Below are positions 156 through 33,215 of a stretch of DNA of 34,444 nucleotides, piece by piece. The stretch spans positions 1-34,444 of the forward strand of contig JBDKRC010000350.1 in assembly GCA_039683575.1 (NCBI GenBank). Direction: 5' to 3'. Every line of letters begins with the position of its first letter. Position 1 is the stretch's first letter. Source of the stretch: Armatimonadia bacterium. Its GTDB lineage: Bacteria; Armatimonadota; Zipacnadia; Zipacnadales; UBA11051. The notes below the pieces were generated by a model, which was not told the DNA's origin, searched no databases, and was given only the letters and a program-made list of their open reading frames with translations. The translations under genes were made by a program, and so were the position numbers.

Positions 156-905
156 GTACCAGAGTCTTCCACGGCCACGGCCGTCCGCGAAGCTCTCGTC
201 GCCGCGGCGCCCAGCTTGCGCCCGATGGTGTGGGAACAGCCGGGGCAGCCGCTGTTTGCCGCTCTGCGGAGCGGTGCCGATGTGCCTGGCGCCACTATCC
301 GATCATGTGCCGAAGCAGCCGTCGCCGCCGCCGTCGCAGCTCGAGGCGGCGCCGTGGAGACCGTCGTAGCCATGGCTGACGACAGGATGTCCGGGCTAGC
401 CTCGCTGGCCGGCGCGACCGGTAGCGCATACCTGCTCGCCGACCTGCCGCAGGCCGGCAACCTCGGCACTGCCACGCTCGGCCTCAAGCAACTCCGCAGC
501 CTGCTCGGTAGCCTGCAACTGCCGGAAGCTCAGATACCGCCCGCCTCCCCGGCGCCCGCACAGGCCGCCCGGGAGGGGGACCTGCCTCCGGCGGCAGTGG
601 CTGCGCTGACCGCGGATACCCGCCTGCAAGCCTACTCTCGCGAGGGCCTCATCCTGGTATTGCCCGCTCAGGCTGATCCCGCGGTCGTGGCTGGCGCGGC
701 CGAGTCGCTGCTCAAAGCATGGCAGGCAGTCGATGCAGATACCAACCGCCTCCTGATCACAGGGCCTACCGGTGGATTGGTGATCGCCAAACTGGCACAA
801 GGTCTCATCGCCGCCATGGTGGCCGCTACCCCCGGTGAGATTGCCGCACACAACGTGCACGTTAAGAAGCTGTTATCGGCAATCGGCCCGGAGGCTGGCG
901 CATGA
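3..905 (+). CDS. 5'-truncated protein: (VVEP)n linker followed by two degenerate roadblock/LC7 (MglB-like) domains
   Basis: The frame is open from the window start, so the true start lies upstream. The C-terminal part has alpha/beta segments ending AGNLGTATLGLKQL and LLITGPTGGLVIAKLAQGLIAAMV, resembling roadblock domains (recognised by eye). Its stop overlaps the next ATG (ATGA at 902-905). Confidence 0.6.
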   Translation, partial: VEPVVEPVVEPVVEPVVEPVVEPVVEPVVEPVVEPVVEPVVEPVVEPVVEPVPESSTATAVREALVAAAPSLRPMVWEQPGQPLFAALRSGADVPGATIRSCAEAAVAAAVAARGGAVETVVAMADDRMSGLASLAGATGSAYLLADLPQAGNLGTATLGLKQLRSLLGSLQLPEAQIPPASPAPAQAAREGDLPPAAVAALTADTRLQAYSREGLILVLPAQADPAVVAGAAESLLKAWQAVDADTNRLLITGPTGGLVIAKLAQGLIAAMVAATPGEIAAHNVHVKKLLSAIGPEAGA

Positions 906-1705
906 CTTTGGGACGCCGCGAATCATGGCCCTCGCTCATAATCCTCGGCGTGGGCTTGCTCACGCTGGCGCTGGTGCTGAAAGCGAATCAGCAGGACCTG
1001 CCGCTGCAGCCACCATGGCTCATGGCCATTCCCGTGGTGCTCTACGTGCTTGTGCAGGCAATCGCCCAGGGCCCCACCGTTGGTGCCTTGTTGGGCGTGG
1101 TAATCATGATTGTGGCACACCTGTTCCTGGCGCTGTTGATGGGGCTCGGCTACTCGGCAGTTGAGGGTCAGCCGCGGGCGGCATATGATGCGTTGCAGAG
1201 CGGTCTATGGGCTTACGTGCCGGGCACGGCGCTCCAATTTGCCTTCGCATGTCTCACCGGCGTAGTCTTCGCCGCCTGGCACACGAACCGTCCAGCGTCA
1301 GTGGTCCAGCCCCTGGAAGGGGCCCCGCAGCCGGTGCTGCTGCCGGATCTACAGCAGGCACCCACCGCGGCGGCAGCCGTTGCCACCGCTGCGGCGGTAC
1401 CGGGCGTGGGTGCGGCGTTGCTGGCCTCGGCCGACGTCGTGGCCGCCGGCGCGTGGGAGCGGGACCCCGGAGCCGCGCTGGCCCGCATACAATCCCTCGG
1501 CAGCCGCACCGGTCATGGACTGAACTCGGTCTCACTTGATCGTGTCTCCTTACTCGTCCGCTCGGAGCCAGGCAGGCTCGCGGCGCTCCTGGTTGGTAGC
1601 GAGTTGAGCCGCCCTGCAGGGAACGATCTGCTCCGCGATCACTGGGCTGCGGCAGAGCGGCTGCCCGAGCAGGGAACGGCCGAACAAGGAGGGGCCGAGC
1701 TTTAG
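902..1705 (+). CDS. Membrane protein (about 4 TM helices) with a C-terminal roadblock-like domain
   Basis: Four hydrophobic stretches in residues ~10-126. The C-terminal AVPGVGAALLASAD resembles the roadblock N-terminal pattern (xPGVxxAxxxxxDG). Translationally coupled to the upstream ORF. Confidence 0.65.
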   Translation: MTLGRRESWPSLIILGVGLLTLALVLKANQQDLPLQPPWLMAIPVVLYVLVQAIAQGPTVGALLGVVIMIVAHLFLALLMGLGYSAVEGQPRAAYDALQSGLWAYVPGTALQFAFACLTGVVFAAWHTNRPASVVQPLEGAPQPVLLPDLQQAPTAAAAVATAAAVPGVGAALLASADVVAAGAWERDPGAALARIQSLGSRTGHGLNSVSLDRVSLLVRSEPGRLAALLVGSELSRPAGNDLLRDHWAAAERLPEQGTAEQGGAEL

Positions 1706-1718
1706 CCGGCCCAAGGCG

Positions 1719-1895
1719 ATGAGCAAGCTACAACGCTGGTGGCAGCAGTGGCGCAGGCGTGCCAGGCAGCGCCTGCAGCAGATGAAGGCCCCGGGCAGGT
1801 TCCTGTGCGATAGCTGCCGGTATGACTACGGCAATTCCTGTCGCCGCCCCGGCCGCCCCAACGTTACGAATTGTCCCGACTATCGTAGAAGGTAA
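1719..1895 (+). CDS. Small (58 aa) basic Cys-rich putative metal-binding protein
   Basis: Own translation from ATG1719 to TAA1895: MSKLQRWWQQWRRRARQRLQQMKAPGRFLCDSCRYDYGNSCRRPGRPNVTNCPDYRRR. Has C-x2-C-x7-C-x10-C and fills the gap between 1705 and the rpe ATG at 1912. Confidence 0.75.
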   Translation: MSKLQRWWQQWRRRARQRLQQMKAPGRFLCDSCRYDYGNSCRRPGRPNVTNCPDYRRR

Positions 1896-1911
1896 CAACA
1901 CAAACAACGCT

Positions 1912-2580
1912 ATGCGCAATCTACTCATCTCTACCAGCATGCTGTCCGCCAATTTCACTGTCCTTGGCGAGGAAGTGAAGTCTCTCGAGGCTGCCGGCGC
2001 TGACTGGCTGCACTGGGACTGCATGGACGGGCATTTCACCGACCAGCTGACTCACGGGCCTCTCGTCCTCAAGGCCTTGCGGCCGCTGACTACCCTGTTC
2101 TTTGACGCCCACTTGATGCTCACCAATCCTGAGCCGCAAATACCGCTCTTCGTGGACGCCGGGGCAGACGGCATCTCCATCCACATCGAGACCACCGACG
2201 AGCCGGCGAGGCTGCTCGATGACATCCGGGCTCGCGGCTGCAAGTCCTGCCTGACCGTCAACCCACCGACGCCACTGGATGACATCGAGCGCTTGCTGCC
2301 GCACTCCGACGTCATCATGCTCATGGGAGTTATCCCGGGCTATGCGGGGCAGGCCTACCATCCCGAGACCACCGACCGCATCCGTCAGGTGCGCGCGCTG
2401 ATCGACAAAGCGGGACTGCCGACGATGATCGAGGTGGACGGGGGAGTGAATGGTACCACGGCGGACGAGGTGATCGGCGCTGGCGCTGATGTGCTGGTAT
2501 CGGCCAGCTTCGTGTTCAAGCACCCCGAAGGATACGGCGGGGCGATCCGGCGGCTGAGGGAGATTGCGGCGGGGCTGTAG
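1912..2580 (+). CDS. rpe: Ribulose-phosphate 3-epimerase
   Basis: Motifs SMLSANF, LHWDCMDGHF, DAHLM, MGVIPGYAGQ, IEVDGGVN. Start moved to ATG1912 because family homology begins there. Confidence 0.95.
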   Translation: MRNLLISTSMLSANFTVLGEEVKSLEAAGADWLHWDCMDGHFTDQLTHGPLVLKALRPLTTLFFDAHLMLTNPEPQIPLFVDAGADGISIHIETTDEPARLLDDIRARGCKSCLTVNPPTPLDDIERLLPHSDVIMLMGVIPGYAGQAYHPETTDRIRQVRALIDKAGLPTMIEVDGGVNGTTADEVIGAGADVLVSASFVFKHPEGYGGAIRRLREIAAGL

Positions 2581-2589
2581 TATTCCCTG

Positions 2590-2662
2590 CGCGTGGTAGG
2601 CATGCTCCGCATGCCGGACTAACCAAACGGGATTCCGGCATGCGGAGCATGCCTGCCACGCG
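2590..2662. repeat. Inverted REP doublet (REPIN-like)
   Basis: CGCGTGGTAGGCATGCTCCGCATGCCGGA (2590-2618) and its inverted copy (2634-2662), 28/29 identical. Each carries the hairpin GGCATGC-TCC-GCATGCC preceded by GTGG. Confidence 0.85.
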
Positions 2663-2679
2663 ATCCAAGCCCAAAAACA

Positions 2680-2713
2680 AAAGTGGGAGGGCTCCTCAGA
2701 GCCCTCCCACTTT
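2680..2713. terminator. Bidirectional intrinsic terminator between convergent rpe and oxidoreductase
   Basis: AAAGTGGGAGGGCTC-CTCA-GAGCCCTCCCACTTT, a perfect 15-bp stem with an A-run on the left and a T-rich run on the right. Confidence 0.85.
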
Positions 2714-2732
2714 CTCTATTGTCTTTGGAGCC

Positions 2733-3863
2733 CTACAGCAGTTCTTCCGGCTTCACATACAGCGGCGGAAGCGGGTTGGGCCGCACTAGCGCGCCACCAT
2801 TCTCGTAGGACTCGATGATCGCGAAGGTGTACTCGATCACCGCGAGAGCGTCCCGGCCCGAACCGCGCAGTTCGTGCTTCGGGACCTTGTTGGTGATGTC
2901 CTCGAGGAAGCCCGTGATGCGCCGGTTGAAGGTCTGGCCGAAGTCATGGGTCCCTGATTCGAAGATCTCCGGCGCGCCGGGCTCGCCAGGATTGATGAAG
3001 CCGGGCTTGCCGGGGCCGCGAGCCGCGTCCGGGGCGCTCCAGAAGGTCGTCCGCTCGATGCAGTTCTCGATACAGAACGTCCCCTTCGTCCCTGCCACCT
3101 CACAGCTCCACCAGCCGCCCAGGCCGTACGACGCATCCCCGCGCTGGCTGAGCAGATAGCCCACTGTGTCGTTAGCGAACTTCAGATGGATGCTCGCCGT
3201 TGAGAGCATCACATCGCCCACCGAGCGGCGGAAGCCCGGCCGGTTCAGGAACGCCTGCACATGCGTGACATCGCCGCAGAAGTGGCGCATGACGCTGAGC
3301 GGGTGAGTCAGGAACGCCTTGAGGTGGAAGTACGGGAAGTCCTTGATCTTGGGCGAAGTCGGGGCCGCCGCAGTCTCCGGCGCGCCGCCCTGGAAGCCCA
3401 TCTTGCACAGGCAGTAGACCAGTTCCCCAAGCTTCCCCTCGTTCTGGTACTGCTTGGCCTTCTCCGCCGTCGGGGTGAAGTAGTGGTTCAGGTCGCAGCC
3501 GAGGTAGACGTCCATAGCGGTGGCGACGTCCACCATCTCGCGCGCTTCTTCGATGTTGCTCGAGATGGGCTTTTCCACCAGCACGTGCTTGCCCGCTTCC
3601 ATCGCCTGCATGGCGGGCTCGTAGTGCCAGCCACCATTCTCCAACCCGCCCGTCGCACAGTCCACGACGTCCAGTTCCTCGTTGGCGAGCATGTCGTCGA
3701 GGCTGTAATACGCCTTGCACTTGAACTGCTCGGCAGCCTTGTCCGCGCGTTCCTTGACTGCATCGCAGATTGCGACGAGGTCAGCGAGGGGGCTGGCGAA
3801 ATGGGTGGGGGCATGTGAATAGCCAATGCCATTCATGCCGACAATTCCGACTTTGAGAGCCAT
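2733..3863 (-). CDS. Gfo/Idh/MocA family NAD(P)-dependent oxidoreductase
   Basis: Rossmann start KVGIVGMNGIG and the GKHVLVEKP motif. Start at ATG3863 with a GGAGA RBS; the 93-codon extension in the ORF track is not homologous. Confidence 0.92.
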   Translation of the reverse strand: MALKVGIVGMNGIGYSHAPTHFASPLADLVAICDAVKERADKAAEQFKCKAYYSLDDMLANEELDVVDCATGGLENGGWHYEPAMQAMEAGKHVLVEKPISSNIEEAREMVDVATAMDVYLGCDLNHYFTPTAEKAKQYQNEGKLGELVYCLCKMGFQGGAPETAAAPTSPKIKDFPYFHLKAFLTHPLSVMRHFCGDVTHVQAFLNRPGFRRSVGDVMLSTASIHLKFANDTVGYLLSQRGDASYGLGGWWSCEVAGTKGTFCIENCIERTTFWSAPDAARGPGKPGFINPGEPGAPEIFESGTHDFGQTFNRRITGFLEDITNKVPKHELRGSGRDALAVIEYTFAIIESYENGGALVRPNPLPPLYVKPEELL

Positions 3864-4130
3864 GGGATCATCTCCGTTAATGGTTGAGGCGTTGATCGCT
3901 AGTGAACGCTGAGACTGTGCTTGGTTCGCGCCCCGCGCGCCGAGTCCTTCTTTCGACAGCTGGAGGGGCTGAATGATCGCGCCGTTTGCGATCAGCCAGC
4001 CCGCGGGCCGGATGCAAGCCTGCGATCGGGCTGCAGTCTCGCCTTCGGCCCCTCCATGGATCGCGCCGTCTCCGACTACACGCTCGCGGGCCGAACCCCG
4101 AAAATGCGGCGGTAGACGCCAACAAAGGTA

Positions 4131-4160
4131 TTGACACCGCAAGGAAGCCTGATGTATAGT
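4131..4160 (+). promoter_or_regulatory. Sigma70-type promoter of the dcw operon
   Basis: TTGACA (4131-4136), 18-nt spacer, TATAGT (4155-4160), upstream of mraZ. Confidence 0.75.
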
Positions 4161-4170
4161 CAGGCGGCAA

Positions 4171-4195
4171 CGGGAGAAGTTGGGATTTTCTGGGC
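4171..4195 (+). promoter_or_regulatory. MraZ operator: three (T/C)GGG(A/C) boxes at 10-bp period
   Basis: CGGGA 4171, TGGGA 4181 and TGGGC 4191, just downstream of the -10 element. Matches the known TGGG[A/G] 10-bp-spaced MraZ binding repeats. Confidence 0.7.
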
Positions 4196-4228
4196 TATAA
4201 ACGGATCTATAACTCTCCTGCAGCCATC

Positions 4229-4702
4229 ATGCCTGAAACCATCGGTCCCGCAATCCAATCAGTTACAGATGGGCGCTTGACCTTCAAAAAAGCGCACCTG
4301 GAGTACCTTGGTAACCCCGAATGCGTGGACGTGACATTTGGCCCCGGTCGTAGCATCTTGATCCACAACCCGCAGCGGCGGCAGGAACTGCTCGACATGC
4401 TGCTGGCTGACGAGGAAGGGCTGCTTGACGAGGACCAGAACCAGATCGAGCTTCGGCTCGACAGTCTGGCCGACCCGGCGCCCGTCGATGAGCAGGGCCG
4501 GATGCGTATTCCGCCAGTATACCTCAATCGCCTGCGATTGCCAGAGAAAGGCGCAAAAGTTTATCTCGTGCCTCGGCGGCGCAACGGCTGGATCGAGGTA
4601 TGGAGCGAAGCGGAGTTTGACCGGATGATCGACGCGCCCGCGGATGTGTGGCAGGTAGCGCTGAACCGGTTGGTACTGCGACGGCGTGGCACGCAGGTGT
4701 AA
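4229..4702 (+). CDS. mraZ: MraZ family transcriptional regulator (divergent)
   Basis: First dcw gene, 157 aa. Second SpoVT/AbrB repeat VDEQGRMRIP and C-terminal IEVWS are present; the first repeat is degenerate (SVTDGRLTF). Confidence 0.8.
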   Translation: MPETIGPAIQSVTDGRLTFKKAHLEYLGNPECVDVTFGPGRSILIHNPQRRQELLDMLLADEEGLLDEDQNQIELRLDSLADPAPVDEQGRMRIPPVYLNRLRLPEKGAKVYLVPRRRNGWIEVWSEAEFDRMIDAPADVWQVALNRLVLRRRGTQV

Positions 4703-4717
4703 ACAAGACTTGATGGG

Positions 4718-5650
4718 ATGACAATGGTACAGCATCAGCCCTGCATGCTTGAAGAGACGTTGCAGTGGCTGGACCTGCAGCCGGGGCAGACAATCGTTGA
4801 CATGACAGTCGGGCTTGCAGGACATGGCCTGGCCATACTTGAGAAGATCGGGCCAGCCGGGCGGTACCTCGGACTGGAATGGGATCCGGAGACGCTGCAG
4901 CAGGCCCGCGAGAGACTTGGCGACGCGCCGAATGTGACCCTTTTCAACGAGAGTTTCACGGAACTGCCGGCCATCCTGACCGAAGCCGGCGTGGAGCAAG
5001 TCGATGGGGTGCTTCTGGACGCTGGAGTGAACCTCTGGCAACTCACGGCCCCGGAGCGGTCTCTGTCGCAGGACAGCGAAGAGGGCCTGGACATGAGGAT
5101 GCGGCGGGATCGGGGAGTGCCGGCGGGCGTGATTGTGAACGAGGCGAGTGAGGACGAGTTGCGCGGGGTGCTGCGGGCGACGCTGGAGGAGCGGGAGGCA
5201 CGGAAGATCGCGAGAGCGATTGTGCGGGCGAGAGAGCGAGAGCCGATCCAGACGACGCGACAGCTATCGTACGTGATCCTTGGCACACGGACGCCGGAGG
5301 CCAGGCGCAAAGGGCGGCAACCCGCACCCGCGCTGCTGGCGTTCCGGATCGCGGTCAACGCCGAGCTTGAGAACCTGGCCGAGGGGGTCAGGGTAGGGGC
5401 GCAGGCGTTGCGGCCGGGCGGCAGGCTCATAGTACTCACCTTCCATAGCGCCGAGTACCGGGTGGCGCGGGAAACGATGAGGGTCCTGGCCGGAAGGTGT
5501 ACCTGCCCACCGCGATTGCCGTGTGTATGCGGGGCGAAGGCGACGGTGAAGATACTCACACCGAAGCCACTGAAGCCCGAGGAAGCGAGTCTGAGGCGGA
5601 GCGGGCCACAATGCCGCAGTTGCCGTTTGCACGCAGCAGAGGCGATTTGA
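4718..5650 (+). CDS. rsmH: RsmH/MraW-family methyltransferase (16S m4C1402 family), strongly divergent
   Basis: Follows mraZ. Recognisable DMTVGLAGH, LDMRM, EEREARKIARAIV, RIAVNAEL, TFHS motifs and a CTCPPRLPCVC insert. Confidence 0.9.
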   Translation: MTMVQHQPCMLEETLQWLDLQPGQTIVDMTVGLAGHGLAILEKIGPAGRYLGLEWDPETLQQARERLGDAPNVTLFNESFTELPAILTEAGVEQVDGVLLDAGVNLWQLTAPERSLSQDSEEGLDMRMRRDRGVPAGVIVNEASEDELRGVLRATLEEREARKIARAIVRAREREPIQTTRQLSYVILGTRTPEARRKGRQPAPALLAFRIAVNAELENLAEGVRVGAQALRPGGRLIVLTFHSAEYRVARETMRVLAGRCTCPPRLPCVCGAKATVKILTPKPLKPEEASLRRSGPQCRSCRLHAAEAI

Positions 5651-5654
5651 CAGG

Positions 5655-6201
5655 TCTTTCGAGCTTTCTTAGCGCGTGGTGCGGGCTTCTCGCCCGCTCA
5701 ATGAGGCGGTACAAGCCGCTTTGTCCCGGCGGAAGATAACCGAAAGGTCACAGCTTAAGCCGAAGCACCAAACGCGGGCGAGACGCGCACATCACGCGGA
5801 GTAGAGAGTTTCTGGGGGGAAGGACAAACAGCGGGGGAGAGCACCTTCAGTTTTCCGGGCGCATACCTTGGCCGGAGGCGACCCGGAGTAGGGAAGGAGG
5901 GCAGATCAGGCAGAAGTCACGGTACACACACAACACACTACGGCAACAACCATCGCAGCCTACATCACAGCACTATACACCGCAACCTTCGTAGTCTTCA
6001 TCATAGCAAGTGCCGCCGCTACAGTCAACGCCAAGATCACAGCCCGTCGCGCCTCCGGGTGCGACAATCACACCAACATACCCAGCCTTGACCGCAGCAA
6101 CACTAGCAGCCAAACCGTGACCTGCTGACTGCCCTCCGTCGAATTCAACGGCCCGCTCCCATCTCAATGGTGGGGCGGGCCTGCCGCACTCAATACGCAG
6201 G
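5655..6201 (+). ncRNA. Putative large structured RNA / intercistronic element between rsmH and ftsL (unassigned family)
   Basis: Nested helices found by eye: 5688-5697/5774-5783 (perfect 10 bp), 5673-5681/5790-5798, 5661-5669/5803-5811, hairpins 5703-5722 and ACC-GAAA-GGT 5739-5748, 5854-5862/5878-5887, a ~24-bp helix 5896-5923/6114-6137, a cUCCGg hairpin 6046-6065, and 6151-6180. Mismatches are G-U on the + strand. Confidence 0.55.
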
Positions 6202-6216
6202 TGAGGGAGGGGCCCC

Positions 6217-6657
6217 ATGAACCGGAGCAATAGCCGTGCCAGGAGCATCCATCCCCCTGCCGCCACAAGGCGACCCGCCCCTGCACCGCGCCTATTCCCC
6301 AGACTGCTTCCCATCTTCATTCTCGGCGCCATGGCGATTCTGCACATCCTGTCACTGGCCAGGCTGTCAGAGCTCGAGTGCGAAAGCCGCCGGCTGGACC
6401 GCCTGATTCTGGAACAGAAGACTATGGAAGCCGAATTGCTGCGTGAGCACCGGGCGCTGGTGAGCAATGCCCGGCTTACTACCTACGCCCAGAGCAGGGG
6501 TATGGTCGCGCCGCAGAGTGTGAAGACGCTGCAGGTCGGGCTGCTGCCCAGCCCGCAGGTATACTGGCAGCTTCCAGAAGAGCCCGGGCGTGAGCGGCTG
6601 GGCGAGGGCCTACAGCTTGGTGCCCTCAGCGCTGCAGAGCCTCGAGAACTGCCTTAG
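6217..6657 (+). CDS. ftsL: Cell division protein FtsL-like
   Basis: Lies between rsmH and the PBP gene. Basic N-terminus, one TM helix, coiled coil, and an RLTTYAQSRGMVAP motif like FtsL's 'RIEKIAxxxLGM'. GAGGGAGG RBS. Confidence 0.75.
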   Translation: MNRSNSRARSIHPPAATRRPAPAPRLFPRLLPIFILGAMAILHILSLARLSELECESRRLDRLILEQKTMEAELLREHRALVSNARLTTYAQSRGMVAPQSVKTLQVGLLPSPQVYWQLPEEPGRERLGEGLQLGALSAAEPRELP

Positions 6658-33100: not shown

Positions 33101-33133
33101 CGCTCAGTGCTACGTGCTGTGTCACCGTCGTCA

Positions 33134-33215
33134 GGCCCGAAGGGCCGTCAGCTTCTAGCCAGGGCCGCAAGGCCCTGGTATGTCACGCACCCAGACCCCA
33201 GAGCCCCGAAGGGGC
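33134..33215. repeat. Second palindromic element: three short hairpins
   Basis: GGCCC-GAA-GGGCC (33134-33146), CCAGGGCC-GCAA-GGCCCTGG (33159-33178), GCCCC-GAA-GGGGC (33203-33215). Confidence 0.7.

Follow-up and report, generated by a model that had tools for sequence, protein, structure and literature searches.

A helix-clamped array of short sequence units between rsmH and ftsL points to an abundant, previously undescribed RNA in one bacterial order

The regulatory RNAs CsrB and RsmZ display many copies of a GGA motif in hairpin loops, and the same motif is present in the leaders of target mRNAs (CsrA/RsmA). In the hok/sok system, a stable RNA is closed by pairing between its 5' and 3' ends and has a strong antisense promoter of the constitutive type inside it. 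A small RNA associated with the dcw cluster is UpsM of Rhodobacter sphaeroides, which its report describes as coming from the dcw 5' leader, upstream of mraZ, as ending at a Rho-independent terminator, and as undergoing RNase E cleavage with Hfq (PMC5089854). Apart from UpsM, no RNA was found for the rsmH-ftsL spacer or the dcw cluster in literature listings. Finally, two sources on Rho put the spacing tolerated between its primary sites at 9-13 nt of linker, or at 12-13 nt for each subunit (PMC6144790; PMC13613805), and one adds that predicted rut sites usually lie downstream of a steady-state 3' stem-loop rather than within it (PMC13613805).

The window analyzed here, by which we mean the whole stretch of 34,444 nucleotides, contains an element in the rsmH-ftsL spacer that can be compared with these systems. 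Its parts and neighbors are as follows.

4718..5650, + strand: rsmH (mraW), the ORF upstream of the element, used as synteny anchor
5855..5886, + strand: P2, a small hairpin (inverted repeat) just 5' of the big helix
5862..6134, probably + strand: extent of the abundant RNA, from metatranscriptome contigs
5896..5923, + strand: 5' arm of helix P3, G-rich, carrying a Shine-Dalgarno-like GGAGG (fold, covariation)
5924..6113, + strand: loop poor in G and rich in A and C, made up of repeated ~12-nt units whose core is UCRCAGCA (autocorrelation, position weight matrix)
5942..5976, + strand: three consecutive units common to all seven families (alignment columns, nhmmer profile)
6000..6028, - strand: predicted sigma-70-type promoter on the opposite strand (promoter scan, family invariance)
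6046..6065, + strand: internal loop hairpin, genus-specific (6046-6053/6058-6065; RNAfold)
6114..6137, + strand: 3' arm of P3, C-rich, carrying CCUCC (fold); the abundant RNA has its right edge in this arm
6150..6181, + strand: hairpin downstream of the element, ahead of the ftsL ribosome-binding site (inverted repeat I13)
6217..6657, + strand: ftsL, an ORF named from position and topology

Relatives of rsmH are present in 63 of 67 genomes of the order and in 119 of 121 genomes of the phylum sample, and a search for related loci anchored on RsmH returned only distant matches from mixed phyla (<=44% identity), with no close relative among them. The FtsL protein has its own tail and a membrane helix and matched no Pfam family, and tblastn detects relatives of it beside rsmH at 14 of the 15 loci of the family. 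Relatives carry hairpins of differing sequence at the place equivalent to P2, and the abundant RNA has its left limit (5862) where the P2 apical loop starts.

An initial annotation of the sequence had proposed a ~24-bp helix in this spacer, and every pairing it named is found where it was placed. RNAfold closes 5896-5923 with 6114-6137 in a duplex (P3) of 24 pairs, none of them G.U; the arms contain bulges. Over 5890-6145, the minimum free energy is -75.7 kcal/mol compared to -58.1 +/- 4.4 kcal/mol for dinucleotide shuffles (z = -4.0), and 0/200 shuffles were as good, which also holds for the fold of 5860-6140 (z = -3.4). The AAGGAGG at 5894-5900 was likewise described correctly as partly buried in the stem with no ATG, GTG, or TTG behind it. 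Across the family, the 5' arm is generally rich in G and has no conserved ORF behind it.

The expectation that the stem should covary in relatives while the loop retains its composition has been borne out. P3 arms pair with each other at -38.9 kcal/mol versus -23.1 kcal/mol with the arms of other genomes, and the own arm is the best partner in 8 of 13 cases. In the family designated f6, pairing reaches 94.3% over 14 pairs, 8 of which carry changes on both sides, a result matched by 0/500 shuffles, with slid controls at 36-59%. Across 34 sequences from all seven families (f1 to f7), aligned by fitting to the model and thus leaning towards structure, double changes occur in 14/14 pairs and 94% of positions pair versus 44-49% in slid controls. 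Overall, these results support P3 as a real, selected structure that displays an unpaired, G-poor segment.

The loop enclosed by P3 is A/C-rich as had been noticed (31% A, 39% C, 17% G, and 14% T), with a GC skew that falls to -0.30 to -0.38 within it, and its single small hairpin (6046-6053/6058-6065) is confirmed. The idea that relatives would keep only the composition of the loop was correct for composition but missed sequence motifs and a 12-nt period that are retained as well. Among 51 candidate elements, autocorrelation is 0.351 at lag 12 compared to 0.272 after shuffling, with further peaks at lag 24 (0.327) and lag 36 (0.298). A position weight matrix of the unit built from 252 sites has the core UCRCAGCA, and each element contains 3-11 exact CAGC cores in the 12-nt period within an unpaired segment of 120-250 nt. 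The top match in the own genome of an nhmmer profile made from the three universal units is 5942..5976. The loop also has a period-3 signal. The leader of mraZ contains classic direct repeats at 4172-4196, and these are GGG-type repeats unlike the UCRCAGCA units, so the possibility that the units serve as an MraZ operator was rejected. Besides the units, the initial annotation had missed that the opposite strand carries a predicted promoter, that abundance is high, and that the element is conserved throughout the order.

This conservation is tied to a single locus. In 45 of the 47 spacers of the order that were examined, representing all seven families (f1 14/14; f2-f7 31/33), the helix and low-G segment lie right after rsmH, and the position between rsmH and ftsL is fixed in every genome carrying the element. 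From its 3' end to the ftsL start there are 80 to >300 nt, with other hairpins between. The element was not found in 40 rsmH-ftsL spacers of 34 other families of the phylum, a judgment based on how the ORFs are spaced and on searches with the unit profile and the covariance model; a filter for stem plus composition alone is unspecific, passing 15 sites in 12 of the 40 control spacers. Weak model matches from outside the order (L189 with 17.6 bits, L171, and L174) correspond to the FtsL N-terminal coding region and were taken as chance, and one off-locus model match is a coding repeat rich in Ser, Gly, and Tyr.

The element is also single copy in its own genome, where the family profile matches only 5895-6121 (E 1e-29), BLAST finds the element itself only, and shared 11-mers reveal no long match or complement elsewhere. 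In f6, 16 of 18 genomes give a single strong match, always adjoining rsmH, in covariance searches whose f6-based model is weak for other families. Genomes of f7 carry the element in 2-3 tandem copies, which the covariance model recovers independently.

Metatranscriptome contigs indicate that this locus is prominently represented in RNA. In all four runs, which come from one study with at most 3 samples, contigs within ~5862-6134 have depths of 300-4500 versus 2-25 on rsmH and ftsL (X1 447; X2 3922 and 326; X3 4584; X4 614 and 961), with the proviso that depth taken from assembled contigs is a poor measure of level and is unable to rank genes. Adapter-tagged contig ends occur at 5862 in 3 of the 4 runs, and the opposite contig ends with adapter are located at 6134, 6121, and 6112; this edge is flush with the stem. 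Because these deep contigs are confined to ~5862-6134, they point to a discrete, stable RNA of ~275 nt. With both arms included in them, the helix belongs to the species that accumulates, and the earlier proposal of an RNase III stem that frees the loop is not supported.

The contigs carry no strand, and several features suggest that the abundant RNA is the + strand. The fold z-score is -3.4 for the + strand versus -2.1 for the - strand (7/200 shuffles as good), the internal hairpin contains a G.U pair when read as the + strand in 3/3 genus members, and strain variants at 6053, 6060, and 6064 seen in RNA contigs keep its pairing on the + strand only. A U-tract directly 3' of the 3' arm in 2 genus members also favors the + strand, and the 3' end flush with the stem base was counted in the same direction. 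The closing helix has no strand preference (25 versus 25 by energy; G.U 68 versus 84; alifold undecided).

Searches with Rfam 15 at the gathering threshold identified only Acido-Lenti-1 (33133-33178) in the window. At E up to 10, the region 5500-6400 gave only chance-level matches of 12-17 bits, and at E up to 1 the loci of 15 relatives gave a single unrelated weak match. An identity as 6S RNA was rejected, given that the canonical 6S RNA is on another contig (66 bits) and the element has no 6S match. The helix-clamped RNA matches no described family and is, in this sense, previously undescribed. A promoter scan of the + strand of the window found neither a promoter nor a terminator of the RNA's own.

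Sequences resembling the units are also found elsewhere, in twos or threes within leaders. Leaving the element itself aside, 6 of the best 10 two-unit clusters of the own genome precede ORF starts in sense orientation, an enrichment in leaders that was assessed by eye and lacks a matched control. The genes behind unit-bearing leaders encode SepF, three SdrD_B surface proteins, and an NAGPA lipoprotein, and three other genomes have similar leaders behind sigma-70-like promoters. The two-unit pattern is ~2x as frequent as its reversed control across five genomes (101 vs 47), and many unit-like matches are simply signal-peptide coding sequence.

An abundance hundreds-fold over the neighboring mRNAs, combined with units in leaders of genes for the envelope and for division, leads us to the tentative view, held at somewhat less than even confidence, that a helix-clamped, unpaired, multi-site RNA serves a unit-reading factor as platform or decoy. 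The RNA might be cut out of the dcw operon transcript or arise from a start not located, and P3 would clamp both ends of a segment that is kept near G-free. Because it is almost free of G, this segment should be unable to fold on itself, and many copies of the leader motif could thereby be offered to a reader that would be buffered or titrated. Candidates for the reader might include a new RNA-binding protein, Rho, ribosomal protein S1 or the 30S subunit, and an antisense RNA; we infer that such a reader exists, what it might be, and that the RNA acts in trans. The initial annotation had listed a displayed single-stranded protein-binding region among its options, of which the display of an unpaired segment is supported and the binding part comes close to the platform or decoy favored here. 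A more elaborate version, which we regard as doubtful though deserving of attention, is Csr-type post-transcriptional control with new parts. Here, a clamped RNA with up to a dozen UCRCAGCA units would titrate a new RNA-binding protein or Rho that reads envelope and division leaders (SepF, surface proteins, and pilins), and the antisense promoter would provide tuning in four families.

That promoter also forms the basis of an alternative. On the opposite strand of the loop, the scan predicts a -35 element at 6028-6023, a 17-nt spacer, and a TG-extended -10 element at 6005-6000, for 10/12 matches plus the TG and a predicted start near 5993 that is directed towards rsmH. In the f1 alignment, the invariant columns are the key positions of the -35, TG, and -10 elements. 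The pattern is present in 28 of 51 candidate elements (f1 14/14, f4 7/9, f5 5/5, and f2 2/2), and a scan of relatives from f1, f2, f4, and f5 found one site in each of the four, antisense and with TG, where shuffles lead to an expectation of 0.0-0.4. It is missing in f3 (0/1), f6 (0/11), and f7 (0/9), in which the helix and units are kept. The most conserved block of the loop in four families is this opposite-strand promoter, for which a decoy model has no need.

The element might be a sense/antisense module in which, in f1, f2, f4, and f5, an antisense RNA transcribed from the loop promoter is the functional product or one part of it. Such an RNA would be complementary to the three universal units and to the 5' arm, and its pairing with the sense RNA might open the clamp or trigger cleavage and so set ftsL expression. 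Alternatively, it might pair in trans with unit-bearing leaders, leaving the abundant sense RNA as a sponge. We judge this explanation unlikely, yet still worth serious consideration. Conservation of the predicted promoter in four families, including that of the window, and terminator-like hairpins on the antisense strand downstream near the rsmH stop in 2 of 4 relatives are in its favor, but no antisense terminator was found in the window and three families retain helix and units without the promoter. Furthermore, deep contigs span the predicted start (5862-6056, 5956-6134, and 5950-6011), and depth is equal in the halves upstream and downstream of it, so the abundant species is not initiated there.

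Two further explanations appear quite unlikely, and to a similar degree. In the first, the C-rich array would be a cis-acting platform that loads Rho, causing termination before or in ftsL, after which exonuclease trimming to the helix would leave a stable stem-loop. The genome has a Rho gene, the RNA stops flush with the stem on its 3' side, and a 12-nt period would provide one YC-containing unit per Rho subunit. Published criteria for rut sites call for ~60-80 nt of unstructured RNA with more C than G and with YC dimers 9-13 nt apart (PMC6144790), and the loop has C in excess of G (39% versus 17%), little predicted structure, and a 12-nt period. Typical rut sites are not sequence conserved, however, as these units are over seven families, and they need no clamp. 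The array also lies inside a stem-loop rather than at the usual downstream position (PMC13613805). Moreover, the depths of rsmH and ftsL are alike by the crude measure of contig depth (X2 11-21 vs 16; X3 7-15 vs 19-25). The suggestion in the initial annotation that a Rho site gates read-through into ftsL therefore appears weak, in that composition and period fit, whereas the lack of a depth drop and the sequence-specific units do not.

In the second, the RNA would be a stable fragment with a local role or none, such as a 3' guard of mraZ-rsmH or a 5' guard or translation leader of ftsL. Accumulation would result from nuclease resistance, and the units would be an unstructured spacer or a landing pad for S1 or the ribosome ahead of ftsL. 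The fixed rsmH-ftsL position agrees with this explanation, as does the lack of a + strand promoter or terminator in the window; the 3' arm (CCUCC) can alternatively pair with the ftsL ribosome-binding site (inverted repeat I22), and two of the unit-bearing leaders elsewhere lack a Shine-Dalgarno sequence. A guard hairpin would not require sequence-specific units in seven families or the tandem copies of f7, however, and a role at ftsL must contend with a distance of 80 to >300 nt to the start codon, intervening hairpins, and an abundant species that ends before the gene. A very stable, functionless processing fragment would yield an identical depth profile.

A DNA-level element, either an inverton with a flippable promoter or a MITE, is very improbable. 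Inverted repeats of ~24 bp do flank a promoter-bearing segment in four families, and the helix has no G.U bias for either strand, but the arms are bulged, the helix is kept in three promoter-less families, and the stretch between the inverted repeats is itself the abundant RNA. All profile matches in spacers of the order share one orientation, that of rsmH and ftsL, and 4 RNA runs contain zero strand-switch joints. An identity as a MITE or REP repeat was rejected on the finding of a single copy per own genome. Least credible of all is that the element encodes a small hydrophobic protein or a type I toxin whose ribosome-binding site is sequestered and whose antitoxin is an antisense RNA: a 78-codon stop-free frame (5892-6129) encodes a membrane-helix-like peptide, the loop has its period-3 signal, and the 5'-3' pairing, buried Shine-Dalgarno sequence, and antisense promoter recall hok/sok, yet that frame has no ATG, GTG, or TTG, open frames are not above composition-matched shuffles (mean P 0.46, 50 elements), ORFs in the unit frame vary in length, often break after the units, and share no common start, and the unit frame shifts within the element. 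A protein-coding function was rejected, there being no start codon and no conserved ORF.

The dcw cluster is among the most conserved and most studied bacterial operons, and a whole order has a large, covarying, and apparently very abundant RNA within it. If the platform or decoy interpretation is true, the RNA would represent a new class of regulatory RNA and would point to a new RNA-binding protein that regulates genes of the envelope and of division. Were Rho the reader, this would be, to our knowledge, the first RNA of such a kind for Rho. If a Csr-type system operates, then envelope expression would be tied to transcription of the division operon. On a more modest reading, the element is a new RNA family with a testable structure that can serve as a marker of the order in metatranscriptomes, and it is unusual in that a consensus promoter lies antisense within a structured RNA.

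Each of the known systems shares some features with this RNA. Like hok/sok, it is an end-paired, stable RNA with a buried sequence resembling a ribosome-binding site and an internal antisense promoter. Of the features expected for a type I toxin-antitoxin system, long-range pairing and the antisense promoter (4/7 families) were found and a conserved hydrophobic ORF was not; unlike hok/sok, the element has no conserved toxin ORF or start codon, and three of seven families lack the antisense promoter. It resembles 6S RNA as an abundant RNA of ~200 nt with a long closing stem, here with a promoter sequence embedded in the RNA. However, there is no double-stranded body with a central bubble, and the promoter block in the + sense is the template-strand version. 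With rut sites it shares the excess of C over G, the unstructured character, and YC dimers spaced for the six primary sites of Rho (PMC6144790). Rut sites differ in being degenerate, in having no enclosing covarying helix, and in not leading to RNA accumulation, and the present element has no drop in contig depth downstream.

The resemblance to UpsM involves an untranslated origin in the dcw transcript and restriction to a single taxon (PMC5089854). The present RNA instead lies between rsmH and ftsL and has another architecture, with no sequence or Rfam relation to UpsM. From CsrB it differs in its motif, which is UCRCAGCA and not GGA, in having one long unpaired segment with a 12-nt period clamped by a single helix, in being encoded inside the dcw operon, and in a reader that is hypothetical; there is no Rfam match. 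Nevertheless, many motif copies in unpaired RNA and high contig depth, as expected of a CsrB-like sponge, were found here, and the likeness to CsrB and RsmZ extends to an abundant noncoding RNA whose many short motif copies are unpaired and whose motif may also mark the 5' leaders of candidate targets.

The initial annotation had proposed a long helix that loops out an A/C-rich, G-poor segment upstream of ftsL, and all of the pairings that it listed are present in the window sequence. RNAfold pairs 5896-5923 with 6114-6137 in a helix of 24 pairs, none of them G.U, closing a 190-nt loop (A 31%, C 39%, G 17%, T 14%). The minimum free energy of -75.7 kcal/mol was not equaled by any of 200 shuffled sequences (-58.1 +/- 4.4; z = -4.0). 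No Rfam family matches the element in the window or at the loci of 15 relatives, and the stretch occurs once in the 6.2-Mb assembly, which rules out a dispersed repeat. The features of the locus are as follows:

4229-4702, mraZ, where the dcw cluster starts in the window
4718-5650, rsmH, next in the dcw cluster after mraZ
566 nt, the rsmH-ftsL spacer, site of the element
6217-6657, ftsL, after the spacer and followed by ftsI and murE
6028-6023 (-35) and 6005-6000 (TG-extended -10), 17-nt spacer, minus strand, antisense promoter predicted by a promoter scan

Several other features were recorded nearby. At 4131-4196, a sigma-70-like promoter for mraZ (11/12 matches) is followed by three direct GGG-type repeats, spaced by ~10-11 nt, that resemble classic MraZ operator boxes. 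Just past the rsmH stop, a G+C-rich hairpin (5670-5700) belongs to a dispersed REP-like repeat with at least 17 near-identical copies elsewhere in the same genome (90-96% over 25-35 nt) and further copies in three others (G002, G017, G024). The C-rich 3' helix arm (6132-6140) is complementary to the ftsL ribosome-binding site (6203-6211) over 9 nt (89%), and this predicted pairing could be a switch. In one genus (g4; loci L110, L112, and L114), an outer helix P1 surrounds both the small hairpin P2 (5855-5886 in the window) and the closing helix P3, a conserved hairpin lies immediately before the ftsL ribosome-binding site, and a conserved minus-strand -10-like block is found ~100 nt past the element. 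The window's sole Rfam match over the gathering score is an Acido-Lenti-1 RNA (33133-33178, minus strand, 40 bits).

RsmH served as the synteny anchor for locating equivalent spacers. It is present in 15 of the 16 genomes of the window's own family, f1 (the missing genome is 66% complete), with ftsL 400-700 nt 3' in 14 of the 15 loci, and in 63 of the 67 genomes of the order, where 33 of the 48 non-f1 matches were examined over the 1.3 kb downstream of RsmH. Among the 47 spacers from the seven families of the order (f1-f7), 45 carry a strong long-range stem that starts 100-200 nt past rsmH and encloses 120-250 nt with a G fraction of 0.16-0.28 and an A/C fraction of 0.56-0.73. One of the two exceptions is a contig ending after 229 nt, and in the other the loop G fraction is 0.30. 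Relatives keep the low-G, A/C-rich composition, and the helix covaries. In f7 genomes (L148, L149, L151), the whole stem-loop occurs in two or three tandem copies between rsmH and ftsL.

Stem and composition alone are unspecific as a filter, since 15 sites passed in 12 of 40 control spacers, which represent 34 families elsewhere in the phylum (two belong to the same class). Three additional criteria were therefore used: ORF spacing, a unit profile, and a covariance model. In the 40 control spacers, an ftsL-like ORF begins 30-220 nt past rsmH, and the array of short repeated units described below was not found. A profile of the three units kept in all families matched none of these controls at E < 0.01 (best 0.012). 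At that cutoff it matched 33 of the 47 spacers of the order, in every case on the rsmH strand, a positive side that is circular because the profile was built from those same spacers. A covariance model built from f6 alone recovers the element in each of the other six families, in the expected position and orientation (17-37 bits), and also the f7 tandem copies. Within f6, it yields one strong match (124-214 bits) adjoining rsmH in 16 of 18 genomes, the remaining two being 83% and 59% complete. Its weak matches outside the order fall within sequence encoding the FtsL N-terminus and are taken as chance.

The arm sequences vary between genera while pairing is retained. Arms pair with their own partners at a mean of -38.9 kcal/mol, vs. 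-23.1 for arms from other genomes, and in 8 of 13 cases no foreign arm pairs better. In a MAFFT alignment of ten f6 elements, pairing across the 14 pairs amounts to 94.3%, compared with 36-59% when the partner is slid by 1-3 columns, and 8 of the 14 show changes on both sides, which none of 500 shuffles reach. Across 34 sequences from all seven families, double changes occur in 14/14 pairs (94% paired vs. 44-49% slid), a figure that leans toward structure because the alignment was fitted to the model.

Within the loop, the unit (A)UCRCAGCA plus about four free bases recurs. Spacings of 12 nt dominate between CAGC cores, with 11, 13, and 24 also common, and autocorrelation over 51 candidate elements is 0.351, 0.327, and 0.298 at lags 12, 24, and 36 (shuffles 0.272), accompanied by a smaller period-3 signal. 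All families retain a run of three consecutive units (window positions 5942-5976), and the remaining loop is lineage-specific: the window's genus has an internal hairpin there, and f6 a different invariant block. A stop-free frame of 78 codons spans the element in the window and contains no ATG, GTG, or TTG. Over 50 elements, one spurious candidate being left out, open frames do not exceed those of composition-matched shuffles in length (mean P 0.46). Furthermore, the units change reading frame within elements, and the unit-frame ORFs of relatives have no common start or end. The element does not code.

Parts of the stretch are present in four metatranscriptome runs (X1-X4) from one study with at most three samples. 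Contigs within ~5862-6134 have k-mer depths of 447 (X1), 3922 and 326 (X2), 4584 (X3), and 614 and 961 (X4), vs. 2-25 for rsmH and ftsL contigs. Adapter-bearing ends lie at 5862 in three runs and also at 6134, 6121, and 6112, and contigs 5862-6056, 5956-6134, and 5950-6011 cross the middle of the element. This is strong evidence for a discrete, stable RNA of ~275 nt, comprising the entire stem-loop and ~35 nt upstream, but it is not final because contigs are an unreliable guide to strand, ends, and level. A canonical 6S RNA is found at another place in the genome. Contig depth is about the same on rsmH as on ftsL and therefore no attenuation is visible across the element.

The closing helix is undecided on strand (energies 25 vs. 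25, G.U counts 68 vs. 84), and alifold likewise gives no preference. Five observations favor the plus strand for the RNA. The fold z-score is -3.4 on plus vs. -2.1 on minus; in all three genus members with an internal hairpin, that hairpin contains G.U in the plus sense; strain variants at 6053, 6060, and 6064 in one RNA contig preserve hairpin pairing on the plus strand, and two of them would yield A.C mismatches on the minus strand; two genus members have a U-tract immediately 3' of the 3' arm; and the 3' edge of the RNA is flush with the stem base.

The best-conserved loop block of f1 reads on the minus strand as the sigma-70-type promoter (10/12 matches), and invariant alignment columns coincide exactly with the key positions of its -35, TG, and -10. 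The pattern is present in 28 of the 51 candidate elements (f1 14/14, f4 7/9, f5 5/5, f2 2/2) and missing from f3 (0/1), f6 (0/11), and f7 (0/9). A promoter tool found one antisense TG site in each of four relatives (f1, f4, f5, f2; expected 0.0-0.4) and none in one f6 and one f7 spacer. Two of these four relatives also have a terminator-like hairpin downstream on the antisense strand, close to the rsmH stop. The embedded predicted promoter shows the locus to be a sense/antisense pair in at least four families. The unit on the minus strand resembles an extended -10 element lacking its key A, from which the promoter may have originated. This promoter alone does not account for the abundant RNA, since contigs run across its predicted start and are as deep on the upstream half as on the downstream half. 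The antisense RNA could itself be the reader of the units, could switch the clamp open, or could act as a distinct regulator. Elements of f6 have their own invariant 10-nt loop block (columns 140-154 of the f6 alignment A3) at the position that the antisense promoter occupies in four other families.

Units also occur elsewhere, in leaders judged by eye without a matched control. Of the 12 best two-unit clusters in the window's genome, two belong to the element itself; among the other ten, six are sense-oriented upstream of ORF starts and one is in a signal-peptide coding start. The genes 3' of clusters encode SepF, three paralogous SdrD_B surface proteins with long leaders, and a NAGPA lipoprotein, and a seventh site, from profile matches, precedes a weak OMP-like protein. 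A Shine-Dalgarno sequence is missing from two of these leaders. Counts of the two-unit pattern in five other genomes total 101, vs. 47 for a reversed control, and three of the exact matches are in leaders behind sigma-70-like promoters or near a start codon. Many other matches simply code for hydrophobic signal peptides. In an f7 genome, three units lie immediately 5' of the ribosome-binding site of an SLH protein. The three SdrD_B secreted-protein genes stand in a row (locus L197, contig C345, 14900-21300), each after a ~200-nt leader that combines two units with a small hairpin and a terminator-like hairpin plus U-run, a possible attenuator or small RNA gene. In genomes of two families (G021, G006), a conserved two-unit stretch at the extreme ends of several contigs (L220, L213, and others) may mark the border of a repeat or rRNA operon at which assemblies break.

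The RNA could have a purely local role, or be a stable fragment without function. An RNA that displays many copies of the leader motif to a reader, and would thereby buffer that reader, fits best because of the covarying clamp, the unpaired periodic 8-mer array, the very high steady-state level, the occurrence as one copy at one site within a single order, and the motif's presence in envelope and division leaders. Rho is a concrete candidate for the reader, since its six primary sites take YC dimers with 9-13-nt linkers, according to the accessible portion of PMC6144790, and the genome encodes Rho. The unit is sequence-specific, which favors a reader more selective than Rho. The accessible portions of the literature searched contained no account of an RNA in the rsmH-ftsL spacer. 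The closest published case there is UpsM of Rhodobacteraceae, which is described in the consulted portion of PMC5089854 as lying upstream of mraZ, whereas the present RNA lies between rsmH and ftsL.
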